Positions 18,060-38,292 of a stretch of 64,000 bases of DNA are shown piece after piece; position 1 is the first letter of the stretch, and every line of letters begins with the position of its first letter. The position numbers and the translations under genes are program-made. The notes under the pieces are model-generated. The model was given only the letters and a program-made list of their open reading frames with translations. It was not told where the DNA came from and made no database searches. The stretch lies in IMG/VR virus record IMGVR_UViG_3300030688_000015; one strand, given 5' to 3'. This DNA is from a virus.

Positions 18060-19124
18060 TTGAATATTTATAAAGTAGGAGGAGTTTGCAGAGATGAACT
18101 TCTTGGAAAGAAACCAAAAGATATTGATTACCTTGTACTCGGAAGTAATGAAAAAGATCTACTAGATCTAGGATATAAGAAAGTGGGTAAATTTTTCGCA
18201 ACTTATCTTGATCCTAAAAACAATAATCAGTACTCTTTGCCTAGAATTGAAAATATAAAAGAAGATCTTTCAGAATTAGAAATACTGAAAGAAGATTTAG
18301 CCCGTAGAGACTTAACTATTAACTCCATGGCGGAAAATTCAGATGGGAAAATTTTTGATTTCTTTGGAGGGATTCAAGATTTACAAAATAGAGTTTTGAG
18401 GCACACTTCCACTGAGCACTTTAAATCTGACCCAATCAGGATTCTCAGAATAGCTAGATTTATGTCTGTGCTGAATAATTTTTCCATAGCAGAAGAAACT
18501 TTAGATTTAGTTAGAAAATTAGTTAATGAGAATTTTCTTGAAAGTTTAGAACCTGATAGAGTTCGTAATGAGTTTAATTTAGCTTTTAAATCTTCTAACC
18601 CTTATAGGTTTATTCATACTCTACACCTATTTGGAGCTTTGAGTTGGATATGTAAGTTTTTTGATTTCAAGCAGGTTATAGATAGAAACTTGGAATTATC
18701 TTTTAGTTTGCTTCTAAATACAGAAAAGGATTATGATTCCAGAATATTAATGTCTTCTATATTAGCCACTTCTTTAGGTATTGATTTATATTTAGATAAA
18801 CTTTTAATAGGCAATGATCTATATTCTAGTATTCAAGCATTTAAAAAGCTATATAACTTAAGGATACCTATTTATCAGAGTATATTCTCTAAAGACTGTG
18901 AGAAACTCCTTAGCAAAATTTTAAAGTTTGATAGTATATCCAGAATAGAATTTTATATAAGAGAATCTAAGATCATGGGTAACGAAGCTAGATGGAAAGA
19001 AATTTTACAATACTTAATTACCTTGAAAAATCTTATGTCTGAAGTTTCTAATCAGGATTTTTCTGAAATGAATGTTGAAGAAATAAGACTAAAAAAATTG
19101 GAAATAGCAAATAAATATTTTTAG
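18060..19124 (+). CDS. tRNA nucleotidyltransferase (CCA-adding)/polyA polymerase family head-domain protein
   Basis: YKVGGVCRDELLGKKPKDIDYLV equals the GGxVRDxLLGxxxxDxD motif of class II CCA enzymes. Also RRDLTINSMA. TTG start after AGGAGG. Confidence 0.55.
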   Translation: MNIYKVGGVCRDELLGKKPKDIDYLVLGSNEKDLLDLGYKKVGKFFATYLDPKNNNQYSLPRIENIKEDLSELEILKEDLARRDLTINSMAENSDGKIFDFFGGIQDLQNRVLRHTSTEHFKSDPIRILRIARFMSVLNNFSIAEETLDLVRKLVNENFLESLEPDRVRNEFNLAFKSSNPYRFIHTLHLFGALSWICKFFDFKQVIDRNLELSFSLLLNTEKDYDSRILMSSILATSLGIDLYLDKLLIGNDLYSSIQAFKKLYNLRIPIYQSIFSKDCEKLLSKILKFDSISRIEFYIRESKIMGNEARWKEILQYLITLKNLMSEVSNQDFSEMNVEEIRLKKLEIANKYF

Positions 19125-19136
19125 AAAGAAAACTTT

Positions 19137-19349
19137 GTGAGTATAATTAAACTGACTATTTGTAAAAATGTTTTAGAATACTTAGAGAAAGAAGAAATTA
19201 TATTTTCCATAGAAGATAATCATGTTGTACTGCATAAGAAAAACCTAAACAGAGAAAGTATATTTAAACTATTAGACTGTAGTTTAAACAGTATAGAGCA
19301 GAATGTAAAAAGCCAGTTGATTTCTCATTTTTTAGTAAATAATAAATGA
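19137..19349 (+). CDS. hypothetical protein
   Basis: 70-aa ORF. Confidence 0.35.
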   Translation: MSIIKLTICKNVLEYLEKEEIIFSIEDNHVVLHKKNLNRESIFKLLDCSLNSIEQNVKSQLISHFLVNNK

Positions 19350-20233
19350 ATAAACATATAAAATATATATTAGATAATGTAGAACATCCTAAGTGGATAG
19401 ACTCCAACCTTCAGTATGTAGTAATAACAGGAAGCTACGCTTATAATGTAAATAATTCTAATAGTGACATGGATTTGTATGCTTATGCTATTCCAGAGAA
19501 GAAGATACTATTTCCACATACTCAAGGATATATTAAAGGTTTTGGTAAAGAACCAGAAATCTTTGATCAGTTTCAGAAACATCACATACAAAACCCAAGT
19601 TGGGGTAAAGAATATGACATTCAAATATTTAATATAGTTAAATTCTTTAATTTAACTATGTTGGGAAATCCCAATATGATAGATTGTTTGTATGTTCCCT
19701 CTAATTGTATCTTACATATGACTGAGTTAGGTACACTAGTAAGGGAAAATAGAAATTTATTTCTTTCAAAAATTTGTAAAGTTAAGATGTCTTCATACGC
19801 TTATTCAGAATTGAGAAAAATAGAAAGTAAGGCTCATTCAGGTTCTGAAAAGAGAAAAGAATTAATAGATAAATATGGGTATGATTGTAAACATGCTTAC
19901 CATGTTATTAGATTAATTTTTGAAGCAGAACAGATCTTAGAGGAACATGATTTAGATTTAACAAGAAATTCTGAAATGTTAAAAAGTATAAGATCTGGAA
20001 ATTGGACTCTAGAACAAATTAAGGCTAAATTTTATGAGAAAGAAAAACATCTAGAAGAATTATATTCTAGAAGTACCTTGAGAACTCTACCTGCTGAAGA
20101 AGAAATTAAAAACTTACTTTTTAAGTGCTTAGAATCTCATTATGGGAGTTTATCTAAATTGGAAGTAGAGATACCTAATGCAAAAAATAATTTAATTACA
20201 GAGTTGGAAAAAGTTTTACAAAAGTATAGATAA
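19346..20233 (+). CDS. Pol-beta superfamily nucleotidyltransferase, RlaP/YcgL-like (RNA-repair associated)
   Basis: VVITGSYAYNVNNSNSDMDLYAY (GS...DxD) and CKHAYHVIRLIFEAEQIL, a pattern typical of RlaP-family NTases. Confidence 0.45.
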   Translation: MNKHIKYILDNVEHPKWIDSNLQYVVITGSYAYNVNNSNSDMDLYAYAIPEKKILFPHTQGYIKGFGKEPEIFDQFQKHHIQNPSWGKEYDIQIFNIVKFFNLTMLGNPNMIDCLYVPSNCILHMTELGTLVRENRNLFLSKICKVKMSSYAYSELRKIESKAHSGSEKRKELIDKYGYDCKHAYHVIRLIFEAEQILEEHDLDLTRNSEMLKSIRSGNWTLEQIKAKFYEKEKHLEELYSRSTLRTLPAEEEIKNLLFKCLESHYGSLSKLEVEIPNAKNNLITELEKVLQKYR

Positions 20234-20347
20234 AAATAAGTATTTATGTCTCAAATTTAGAATAATAGAGTTACTATTAAACGGAAGTATAGAGAAATAC
20301 GTAAATAAATATATAATATTTAATAAATTTAAAACAAAAGGATAATT

Positions 20348-36414: not shown

Positions 36415-36415
36415 A

Positions 36416-36661
36416 CTATTCTCCTTTAGGCAATAAAACTTTTACAACTGGGTAACCTTCATATAAGTCTACACTTAAAACATCCCCTATAATTACACTA
36501 TTTTCAGGTTTTTTGAGATCTACTGTCCTTGATTTCTGAATCATATTCTTAATAAATTCCTCTAAAATATACTCTATCTCTCCATTTTCTTTATTTGAAA
36601 AAGAAGGGAATACATAATTAGCAAAATACATTATTTCTTCTTTCAGATTATCTAAATTCAT
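36416..36661 (-). CDS. hypothetical protein
   Basis: 81-aa ORF. Confidence 0.35.
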   Translation of the reverse strand: MNLDNLKEEIMYFANYVFPSFSNKENGEIEYILEEFIKNMIQKSRTVDLKKPENSVIIGDVLSVDLYEGYPVVKVLLPKGE

Positions 36662-36664
36662 TTC

Positions 36665-37270
36665 TTATTTCTCTTTCTTTAAAATTAAATTTTCCACTAA
36701 ACTCTTCCATATTTTAAAATCTACTAACCTTCTCTCAATTGTACTTTTTTGGATAATATCTTTAAAATTGGAAAATTTTTCAAACAAGTTATAATCCCCT
36801 GTAAAATTTACTTCTCCTTTAGAAATTTTTAAATTAATTAAAGGATTTTCTTCACTTAATAATGTTACTTTTAAATTTAAATAGTTAAATTCTTCTGATA
36901 TTGATCTCCATTCGTTGTATATTTCTTCAACTGTAGGATATCTGTCTAATAAATTTAAAGAACAAATTTTTCCAGAAGGACTACACCAGCCAGAAGGGTA
37001 ATCTGTAAAAATATAATCGTTTTTACAAAACTCTAAATTTAAAGTTCCCCAGAGCCTATTCCAATTCAGATAATCTTCATAAGTTTTTAAATTACTTATA
37101 AAGAAAAAATCTTCTATTTCCTTAGAGCCTCCACCATTTTGCATATCAAAAAATTTATCAGTTCTTCTAATAATCTCTAAAGCTTGTTTCTCAGTAATAT
37201 TTTCCCCAACAACAAGCATTCTTGTCCATTTAGGTAAAGAAATTTCAAACTCTTTCATATTAATACTCAA
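36665..37270 (-). CDS. hypothetical protein, paralog of 40729..41370
   Basis: Shared motifs: LPKW..MLV.G..I(T/S)E.QALEIIRRTD.FF, (C/G)WC.P.GKI, YPTVEE(I/V)Y.(E/D)W. Confidence 0.5.
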   Translation of the reverse strand: MSINMKEFEISLPKWTRMLVVGENITEKQALEIIRRTDKFFDMQNGGGSKEIEDFFFISNLKTYEDYLNWNRLWGTLNLEFCKNDYIFTDYPSGWCSPSGKICSLNLLDRYPTVEEIYNEWRSISEEFNYLNLKVTLLSEENPLINLKISKGEVNFTGDYNLFEKFSNFKDIIQKSTIERRLVDFKIWKSLVENLILKKEK

Positions 37271-38292
37271 TCTTTTTCGTTTAGTAGATACTTATTATTT
37301 ATTACTTTAAATGAATATTCACGTTCATGTGATTTAAAAACAACACCTTCAGCAACGGGATTATTGATGCTTGGTAAATTAGCAAAGTTTAATAAATCTT
37401 CAATAGATGTAATCCCAAGTTCTTTAAATGTTTTGTTTTCATGTAGAATTGGTACATAATCTAATTCTAAAATACGAGTTAAATGAAATGCTTCGGATGG
37501 GGTTAGGTATGTATATTTATCAATGTTAAATATATTAAAAACTGCAAATCTAACTTCATTTAGATTTTCATAATTACCATTACAGCCTAATCCAAAAACC
37601 TCACCCTGAATAGCAAGATTTCTTTTTAAGTTAGATAATTTATTTAAAATATCATATTTCTCATTTACAAGATGGTGTTCTGTAGTTACTGTCCCATCAT
37701 TTATTAATTCACAAGTACGATTACATACTCCAGCCATTCCTTTGTTATAAAAGTAAGTACCACTACAACCATCTATTTTAAGAGTTACTTCCCATTTTTC
37801 ATCAGAATTAAAATCTAATTCACTGAAAAGATTTTGACATCTTTCTTGATCTGTTTTAGATACAAAAGAAGGAAAGTCTGCTTTAATTCCCACAGAATCT
37901 TTATTAAATGGTCTTTCATATTTTTTTATTTTTAAAATCCCTGTTACATCCAAACCTTCCATAGTAAAGTTACATTCTGGAAATAAATGTAGTGGCAAAG
38001 CCAATCCCTGAGAAACTTGACCTCTAAATTTTAAAGTTCTTAATTTGAAACCATTTACAATAAAACCACCTTCAACAGAGTGATCTCTGAATTCTTTACT
38101 CAAAAAATTAAATCTATTATCTGAGCTAGGTAGAATACTATCTATTTCAAAATAAATTGCGTAATCTCCCACTTTGAATTCACCTTTTTTTGCTACTAAA
38201 GTCCAACCCCCAATAGTTATTTTCTCTATTCTATCTGCCTTTTCTATTGCCTCTACTTTAGAAACTACACGGATGCTAGCTAACTTTCTCAT
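37267..38292 (-). CDS. ATP-dependent RNA ligase (Rnl family) with N-terminal tRNA-binding-type OB domain
   Basis: OB motif RGQVSQGLALPL. Nucleotidyltransferase motif I LKIDGCS (KxDG). Motif III GEVFG, motif IV EGVVFK, motif V SFKVINNKY. Confidence 0.6.
   Translation of the reverse strand: MRKLASIRVVSKVEAIEKADRIEKITIGGWTLVAKKGEFKVGDYAIYFEIDSILPSSDNRFNFLSKEFRDHSVEGGFIVNGFKLRTLKFRGQVSQGLALPLHLFPECNFTMEGLDVTGILKIKKYERPFNKDSVGIKADFPSFVSKTDQERCQNLFSELDFNSDEKWEVTLKIDGCSGTYFYNKGMAGVCNRTCELINDGTVTTEHHLVNEKYDILNKLSNLKRNLAIQGEVFGLGCNGNYENLNEVRFAVFNIFNIDKYTYLTPSEAFHLTRILELDYVPILHENKTFKELGITSIEDLLNFANLPSINNPVAEGVVFKSHEREYSFKVINNKYLLNEKD

Follow-up and report, generated by a model that had tools for sequence, protein, structure and literature searches.

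The DNA analysed here is a 64,000-nt window of IMG/VR virus record IMGVR_UViG_3300030688_000015 (the whole stretch is referred to as the window), in which positions 18,060-38,292 span four genes for enzymes that act on RNA ends: a CCA-type tRNA nucleotidyltransferase, an RlaP-family nucleotidyltransferase, an RtcB ligase and an ATP-dependent RNA ligase of the Rnl5 family (Table 1). The four genes form two separate pairs about 12 kb apart on opposite strands, and not one operon. The first pair, CCA-type and RlaP, lies on the + strand at the end of a nucleotide-metabolism module, with a 70-residue open reading frame (ORF) between its members; the second pair, RtcB and Rnl5, lies on the - strand, its members 3.5 kb apart. 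Two further ORFs of about 200 residues each, termed paralogs A and B, are encoded on either side of the Rnl5 gene. All ORFs named in a first-pass annotation of the window were recovered at the same coordinates in an ORF map, and the E-values of the enzyme and paralog matches lie far beyond chance.

The window is AT-rich (~28% G+C), with short and densely packed genes, and by the ORF map is transcribed rightward to ~22.5 kb and then leftward to ~60.7 kb. The rightward block contains a 5-hydroxymethyldeoxyuridine (5-hmdU) DNA kinase domain, a UvsX/RecA-like recombinase, an intein-containing thymidylate-synthase homolog, an SbcCD-like nuclease, a primase, a ribonucleotide reductase and a deoxynucleoside kinase, and the leftward block opens with a DNA ligase dependent on nicotinamide adenine dinucleotide (NAD), LigA, and a GroEL homolog, both located between the two gene pairs. 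The window was read as part of a large tailed-phage genome. The same sequence recurs on contigs assembled from several metagenomes of peat and bog, and the longest recorded contig measures 89.6 kb; contigs L001-L004 were 100% identical to the window and therefore gave no comparative information. A megablast search of the region against 50,697 cultured phage records returned no nucleotide-level relative.

Table 1. Features of the window, with the RNA-end genes, their adjoining ORFs and the paralogs first and other features after them.
Feature	Positions	Strand	Length (residues)	Remarks
Class II (CCA-type) tRNA nucleotidyltransferase	18060..19124	+	354	Head and neck domains only, no HD domain
ORF between CCA-type and RlaP genes	19137..19349	+	70	Stop overlaps RlaP start by 4 nt; no significant Pfam match
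RlaP-family Pol-beta nucleotidyltransferase	19346..20233	+	295	PF10127, phrog_388, GS-x12-DMD
RtcB 3'-phosphate/5'-hydroxyl RNA ligase	32539..33729	-	396	PF01139, PDB RtcB matches, motifs
ORF directly upstream of rtcB	33726..34043	-	105	Stop overlaps rtcB start by 4 nt; no Pfam match
Paralog A	36665..37258 (ORF to 37270)	-	197 (from ATG 37258)	Starts 8 nt past Rnl5 stop codon
Rnl5-family ATP-dependent nick-sealing RNA ligase	37267..38292	-	341	PF21189, PF09414, TIGR02306, 5cot, motifs
Paralog B	40729..41370	-	213	Same family as paralog A; 2.4 kb upstream of Rnl5, six ORFs between
5-hmdU DNA kinase helical domain	76-936	+		PF18723
Thymidylate-synthase homolog	2055-3716	+	553	Split by intein
Ribonucleotide reductase large subunit	10574-13456	+	746, then 51, then 164	Apparently split
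YqeY-like (GatB C-terminal-like) protein	15619-16041	+		PF09424
P-loop protein	16994-17608			Deoxynucleoside kinase
IsrB/IscB-like RuvC protein	34478-35671	-		Between Rnl5 and RtcB
HEARO/ωRNA match	35653-35874	-		RF02033; directly upstream of IsrB-like gene
SPFH/Band-7 protein	39145-39915	-		Between paralog B and Rnl5
Calcineurin-like phosphoesterase	52542-53240	-		PF00149
Phosphoesterase with adjoining GST-N-domain protein	52542-53951	-

For RtcB, the Pfam profile PF01139 was matched over positions 1-426 of 426 (405.2 bits against a cut-off of 27, E = 5.3e-121), and the motifs for the two metals, GTP and the histidine nucleophile were complete, comprising PDVH (residues 46-49), DIGCG (74-78), GNHF (154-157), HSGSRG (173-178), HHN (268-270) and HGAGR (325-329). 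The protein is 51% identical to phage RtcBs.

For the ATP-dependent ligase, an OB domain (PF21189, 4.7e-30, residues 4-101) is followed by a nucleotidyltransferase domain (PF09414, 2.1e-19, residues 165-331), with no C-terminal appendage; an N-terminal OB domain is the signature of Rnl5. The protein aligns end to end with the Naegleria gruberi ligase NgrRnl (5cot; residues 4-339 collinear, 2.8e-70), scores 163.8 bits against the DraRnl equivalog TIGR02306 (cut-off 151.15), and matches phrog_968 at 2.2e-80. Motifs I, III, IV and V were located as K172-IDG, QGE (229-231), EGVVFK (315-320) and FKVI (328-331), K172 being the predicted adenylylated lysine. On these matches the ligase was assigned specifically to the Rnl5 type, that of NgrRnl and DraRnl, and not to Rnl ligases in general. 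NgrRnl and DraRnl seal 3'-OH/5'-P nicks in duplexes in which the 3'-OH strand must be RNA, and phage homologs were already recorded in the paper on NgrRnl (PMC4408790).

Rnl5 loci numbered more than 557 in IMG/VR, and 85 phage loci from that database (L061-L145) were sampled with 8-kb flanks. Immediate neighbours were highly variable, the commonest one occurring in 5 of the 85 loci. Within 8 kb, a recurrent cassette was seen in about one quarter of the sample, with a metallophosphoesterase in 21 loci, a P-loop kinase in 20, a second ATP-dependent ligase in 19, a Cys-phosphatase-like protein in 17 and a TROVE-like protein in 13; it is a candidate for a full heal-and-seal system built around Rnl5. 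No homolog of any of these cassette proteins was found in the window. The SPFH/Band-7 protein encoded near the window Rnl5 matches PF01145 at 1.9e-30, and Band-7 genes lie within 8 kb of Rnl5 in 4 of the 85 phage loci.

The CCA-type enzyme matched PF01743 (5.2e-18, 66 bits against a cut-off of 23), PF12627 (8.3e-07) and phrog_2244 (tRNA nucleotidyltransferase, 1.1e-64), and carries GGVCRD at residues 7-12, DID at 21-23 (motif A) and RRD at 82-84 (motif B). Motif D (residues 123-127, window positions 18429-18440) reads SDPIR and not EDxxR, the Glu being changed to Ser with Asp and Arg kept; it is preserved as AEDxxR in three other phage homologs (Xoo-sp13, L024 and L011). The enzyme scored below the cut-off of every NCBIfam equivalog (best PRK10885, 196 bits against 451), and its best PDB match was the A-adding enzyme of Aquifex (1vfg, 9.8e-21). 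Because the equivalogs are below their cut-offs, motif D is deviant and the closest structure is an A-adding enzyme, CCA specificity, as against A-adding, CC-adding or poly(A) polymerase activity, is taken as plausible only, and the motif D change may alter the nucleotide specificity.

For RlaP, PF10127 was matched at 4.4e-12 (46.7 bits against a cut-off of 23) and phrog_388 at 4.5e-41, with the GS-x12-DMD signature at residues 29-43. The gene shares a genome with the two ligases, at a distance of at least 12 kb and on the other strand, and directly adjoins the CCA-type gene. RlaP extends damaged RNA 3' ends by one or two nucleoside monophosphates (PMC12776372). For bacterial RlaP, a requirement in RtcB-dependent rescue of a trimmed tRNA has been shown in vitro. 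As a separate observation, the YqeY-like protein (PF09424, 2.6e-09) is encoded on the strand of the CCA-type gene, 2 kb upstream of it, and may be another tRNA-related accessory gene.

At these positions the first-pass annotation had placed an RtcB, an ATP-dependent Rnl-family ligase with a KxDG motif, an RlaP-type nucleotidyltransferase and a class II CCA-adding enzyme. The RtcB is confirmed by the full-profile PF01139 match and every catalytic motif, the ligase is narrowed to Rnl5 by TIGR02306 and NgrRnl, and the RlaP is upheld by PF10127 above its cut-off and the GS...DxD signature; the accompanying remark that RlaP genes sit beside rtcB in bacteria agrees with the literature (PMC12776372). 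For the CCA-adding enzyme, the class II nucleotidyltransferase assignment stands (PF01743, motifs A and B), with motif D departing from the EDxxR template. Of the three motifs on which the annotation had relied, KxDG and GS...DxD were located, and the place of GGxVRD is taken by GGVCRD.

The CCA-type and RlaP genes are probably co-transcribed. A promoter scan gave promoter-like sites in numbers no higher than in shuffled sequence and did not define operons, and a scan of 30000-42500 gave seven terminator-like sites against 2.8 expected, none of them between Rnl5 and paralog A, which likewise left operons undefined. The interval between RtcB and Rnl5 contains small ORFs and an island richer in G+C (0.35-0.41 against ~0.27).

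The listed window ORFs down to a length of about 70 residues were swept with Pfam for partners that would complete an RNA-repair system, and no match came up for polynucleotide kinase, for HAD, 2H or HD phosphoesterases, or for archease, RtcA, KptA, Thg1 or peptidyl-tRNA hydrolase. The sole phosphoesterase in the window is a calcineurin-like protein (PF00149, 3.9e-17; best PDB match MPPED2, 1e-17) located 14 kb from the ligases. Possibly a phosphodiesterase of cyclic nucleotides or 2',3'-cyclic phosphates, it adjoins a GST-N-domain protein and has no homology to the metallophosphoesterase linked to Rnl5 in other phages. Two candidates were rejected: the P-loop protein as a polynucleotide kinase, being a deoxynucleoside kinase (1.2e-36), and the small ORFs around rtcB as archease, having no Pfam match.

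Prevalence was estimated by tblastn against 50,697 phage records, giving RtcB in 688, Rnl5-type ligases in 331, RlaP relatives in 327 and CCA-type relatives in 434. According to a survey of 224 jumbo phages (Iyer, Anantharaman, Krishnan, Burroughs and Aravind, 2021; PMC7824862, section 3.4.9), RtcB and ATP-dependent ligases may be combined in any way within a phage, RlaP is the most prevalent nucleotidyltransferase and mirrors the ligases, and the CCA-adding enzyme comes next. Among individual genomes, Ralstonia phage RP12 carries RtcB and an Rnl5-type ligase 4 kb apart, with genes for NAMPT and phosphoribosyl pyrophosphate (PRPP) synthase between them, Xanthomonas phage Xoo-sp13 carries a tRNA nucleotidyltransferase, RlaP and a member of the paralog family, and IMG/VR locus L127 has RlaP near Rnl5. 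A search that was not exhaustive found no cultured phage with all four genes, only pairs, nor did any other locus retrieved hold more than two of the four together. In mycobacteriophage Chomp, RlaP-like and Band-7 genes lie 7.5 kb apart, and its record holds no ligase within the first 21 kb, the part covered. The set had been called unusually complete, a description that does not hold: the window has no healing enzyme, archease or RtcA, each of the genes occurs in hundreds of phage records, and the combination has been catalogued (PMC7824862). As a side observation, two NAD-salvage genes, PRPP-synthase-like and NAMPT, are encoded ~3 kb past the right edge of the window (L148, 13125-14349), the same two as in RP12.

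Alternatively, the four genes might be independently acquired accessory genes with no functional integration, brought within 20 kb of one another by the density of accessory genes. The arrangement as two pairs on opposite strands 12 kb apart, with LigA and GroEL between the pairs and an IsrB/ωRNA element between the ligases, fits such an origin, as do the wide variation in Rnl5 neighbours and the finding of at most two of the four genes in every other locus fetched. Set against this are the adjacency and probable co-transcription of the CCA-type and RlaP genes, the distribution of RlaP, which mirrors that of RNA ligases across jumbo phages (PMC7824862), and the proximity of RtcB and Rnl5 in RP12 too. 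A wholly unconnected set is regarded as less likely than not.

Paralogs A and B were described in the first-pass annotation as paralogous, which is borne out by 42% identity over 167 residues (E = 4e-41); they are the sole two copies in the window. The start of paralog A is most likely the ATG at 37258. Neither paralog had a match in Pfam, PHROG, NCBIfam or PDB sequences. A word-indexed search with paralog A returned only three proteins, wrongly hinting at a rare family, whereas an exhaustive profile search brought the family to at least 1,228 cluster representatives (clustered at 50% identity), including 464 with E-values below 1e-30. A profile search of a 5.8-billion-protein set gave 631 proteins, and a Pfam domain or an informative name was attached to none of the 120 listed. 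Members from cultured phages are annotated as hypothetical proteins, in the jumbo phages Motura, Xoo-sp13 and Lu11 and also in Streptomyces phages, and the family extends to the giant virus Edafosvirus (BFVD) and to GTDB genomes of Oscillospiraceae and Lachnospiraceae. By these matches the paralogs belong to a widespread and uncharacterised accessory-gene family of large phages, giant viruses and Firmicutes.

The conserved blocks of the family are LPKW..G..ITE.QALEIIRRTD.FF, GWC.P.G.I and P.VEE.Y, and its alignment contains no P-loop, DxDxT motif, paired HxT/S or invariant histidine. An AlphaFold model built from 52 sequences reached a mean predicted local distance difference test (pLDDT) score of 86.8 and a predicted template modelling (pTM) score of 0.85, producing an alpha/beta fold; a model from a 4-sequence alignment was unusable (pLDDT 48.6). 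The confident model matched no kinase, HAD, 2H, HD or calcineurin-like fold. The "cRec" domain of jumbo phages was rejected as an identity for the paralogs, the model having three consecutive antiparallel strands and not the (beta-alpha)5 Rec fold. Api92/YubB ferredoxin-like proteins (DUF1281) have no detectable sequence relationship to the paralogs, with scores too low for homology to be inferred, and the literature on DUF1281, Api92 and YubB yielded nothing relevant, DUF1281 itself being uncharacterised.

The genomic neighbourhoods of the family were compared with those of the ligases in both directions. Neither Rnl5 nor RtcB was found within 6 kb in any of 46 other paralog-family loci (a CCA-type gene was found in 2 of the 46), and the family was absent from all 85 phage Rnl5 loci within their 8-kb flanks. 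Further contexts, as annotated by Pfam, were heterogeneous, comprising ThyX, NAD-salvage genes, runs of small ORFs and bacterial housekeeping genes. The position of paralogs A and B beside Rnl5 is most likely incidental.

Whereas family membership and catalytic motifs are observed for all four enzymes, their substrates and a role in counter-defence are inferred from the families and the literature. Both enzymes of the first pair would add nucleotides to RNA 3'-OH ends, the CCA-type enzyme rebuilding tRNA 3' termini and RlaP restoring the one or two nucleotides trimmed from broken RNA ahead of ligation. RtcB would directly join 2',3'-cyclic-phosphate or 3'-phosphate ends to 5'-OH ends with no healing step; cleavage by host RNases that need no metal, anticodon nucleases and HEPN toxins among them, leaves ends of this kind. 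Rnl5 would seal 3'-OH/5'-phosphate nicks in duplexes with RNA as the 3'-OH strand. Counter-defence, as proposed in the first-pass annotation, is the accepted reading for such sets in large phages (PMC7824862), and by extension may apply to this phage. The analogy drawn there with the Pnk/Rnl1 pair of T4 is not supported: it is loose because RtcB would be the enzyme to reverse an anticodon-nuclease cut and Rnl5 is, by family, a duplex nick sealer and not an Rnl1-type ligase of tRNA loops, and the window has no Pnk. In function, Rnl5 would be closer to T4 Rnl2.

Taken as a whole, the probable explanation is that a large phage genome from peat or bog encodes four standalone RNA-end enzymes in two unlinked pairs, with the paralogs incidental to them. 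Several observations weigh against it. The Glu-to-Ser deviation in motif D makes the nucleotide specificity of the CCA-type enzyme uncertain, the physiological substrate of Rnl5 is unknown according to PMC4408790, and the distance of 12 kb between gene pairs on opposite strands means that coordinated action is only assumed. tRNA genes were found neither in the window nor in ~16 kb of adjoining contig sequence (~80 kb in total), and no host anticodon nuclease was visible in the same ~80 kb of phage genome. Three further observations concern the paralog family: in a phage contig from freshwater, one member carries a fused HD domain and is encoded 6 kb upstream of an Rnl5 gene; the family has RlaP-like neighbours in about four loci, the one in L030 being directly downstream; and a metallophosphoesterase neighbours it in six loci, with 34.5% identity (E = 8e-20) to the one linked to Rnl5 in 21 loci. 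In locus L019, in addition, a homolog of the Rnl5-linked Cys-phosphatase-like protein adjoins a paralog-family gene. These links of the family to RNA-end genes come from few related lineages and from large accessory-gene regions.

The same links, together with the start of paralog A 8 nt after the Rnl5 stop codon, speak for the earlier proposal that the paralogs heal RNA ends as a new kind of 5'-kinase, 3'-phosphatase or cyclic phosphodiesterase and so feed the ATP-dependent ligase, giving a full heal-and-seal system like T4 Pnk/Rnl1. Also in its favour, the window has no recognisable healing enzyme, while ~20 of the 85 other Rnl5 loci have a P-loop kinase and a metallophosphoesterase nearby, and the family has many conserved polar residues (K10, R32, T33, D34, N80, K106 and E137). 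Profile searches of the paralogs for kinase, phosphatase or cyclic-phosphodiesterase folds, which the first-pass annotation had named as the check on this proposal, were run and found none; the catalytic motifs of such enzymes are absent from the family, linkage to ligases is lacking in either direction, the contexts of the family are heterogeneous, and the 3'-OH/5'-P nicks sealed by Rnl5 need no healing. End-healing by the paralogs is accordingly judged highly improbable. In a broader form, the family might be an unrecognised component of RNA-end processing that works alongside Rnl5- or RlaP-type enzymes, whether as an accessory factor or as an enzyme with a new fold, in which case the paralogs would replace the kinase and phosphoesterase partners found beside Rnl5 in about one quarter of the sampled loci; this, too, is considered very unlikely.

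The four enzymes might, on another account, serve the phage's own nucleic-acid metabolism, with Rnl5 acting on RNA-terminated DNA nicks (patches or primers) beside the NAD-dependent ligase, the CCA-type enzyme on phage tRNAs and RtcB on phage RNAs. The 5'-phosphate strand joined by Rnl5 can be DNA, and proposals for the enzyme include a role at RNA-DNA junctions and in repairing DNA by means of RNA patches (PMC4408790); the CCA-type/RlaP pair stands at the end of a replication and nucleotide-metabolism module, and no host-defence gene or target is visible. A purely metabolic role is nonetheless thought unlikely, since no tRNA genes were found in the ~80 kb, neither RtcB nor RlaP is known to act in DNA replication, and comparative genomics ties these families to conflict systems (PMC7824862).

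Unrelated to the RNA-repair claim, the most interesting object within 18,060-38,292 is the IsrB/IscB-like RuvC protein, which lies on a G+C-richer island of ~1.5 kb. The protein matches RRXRR PF14239 at 5e-27 and NF040563 at 3.7e-22, with IsrB as best PDB match (8dmb, 3.3e-18) and motifs DPG, EDV and HCLD. The HEARO/ωRNA match upstream of it covers model positions 1-211 (full-length) and, with 38.8 bits (E = 2e-06), falls short of the gathering score of 83; it lies on the same island. Gene and ωRNA match together look like an OMEGA-type RNA-guided nickase element inserted in the phage genome.

Other observations were made in the rightward block and beyond. The 5-hmdU DNA kinase helical domain matches PF18723 at 3e-32 and lies near the thymidylate-synthase homolog, which is split by an intein (Hint/Intein_splicing), and this proximity suggests that the phage DNA is thymidine-hypermodified. 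Another intein-containing gene (821 residues) lies just left of the window. In the apparently split gene for the ribonucleotide reductase large subunit, the barrel domain has its C-terminal end (PF02867 positions 456-523) in the 164-residue ORF, and no Rfam intron was matched at the gathering threshold. An IS66-family transposase domain (PF03050, 2.3e-09) was found in one of the 63 ORFs of the Pfam sweep.

The region adds one uncultured large phage to those with both RNA-ligase chemistries and 3'-end nucleotidyltransferases, leaving the view that big phages invest in RNA repair supported and unchanged. Rnl5 proves widespread in phages (331 cultured records and the IMG/VR loci counted above), and its linked cassettes offer a tractable setting for finding its substrate. 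The CCA-type enzyme is notable for the Glu-to-Ser change in its templating motif D, and the paralogs define a large conserved family without annotation and with a confident structure model, which merits a Pfam entry.

Known systems provide the comparison. With the bacterial RtcB-RlaP-RtcA operons of Pseudomonas (PMC12776372) the window shares RtcB and RlaP in one genome and the same Pol-beta signature of RlaP; it differs in that its RlaP adjoins a CCA-type gene, with RtcB 12 kb off on the other strand, and in having neither RtcA nor RtcR. With T4 Pnk/Rnl1 it shares phage-encoded RNA ligation presumed to reverse host RNA cleavage, but it has no Pnk or Rnl1-type ligase, and RtcB would do the job without healing. 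The predicted Rnl5 ligase has the length of NgrRnl and DraRnl and agrees with them in the order of its two domains (OB, then nucleotidyltransferase), in its full set of nucleotidyltransferase motifs and in scoring above the TIGR02306 cut-off, and differs in sequence (~40% identity) and in being phage-encoded.

Relative to the RNA-repair sets of jumbo phages (PMC7824862), the differences are that the window ligase is an Rnl5, whereas the survey stresses Rnl1/Rnl2, and that no kinase, phosphatase, 2H, cRec, TROVE or PTH2 was found in the window and no tRNA genes in ~80 kb. As judged from the available sequence, the set thus departs from the known kind in its predicted Rnl5 in place of Rnl1/Rnl2, in its unusual motif D, and in the healing enzyme, tRNA gene, TROVE and peptidyl-tRNA hydrolase (PTH) not found in it. 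The likeness lies in RtcB, an ATP-dependent ligase, RlaP and a CCA-type enzyme encoded as dispersed accessory genes, and in NAD-salvage genes near the window, as beside RtcB in RP12, making the window a further instance of the known dispersed RNA-repair gene sets of large phages.

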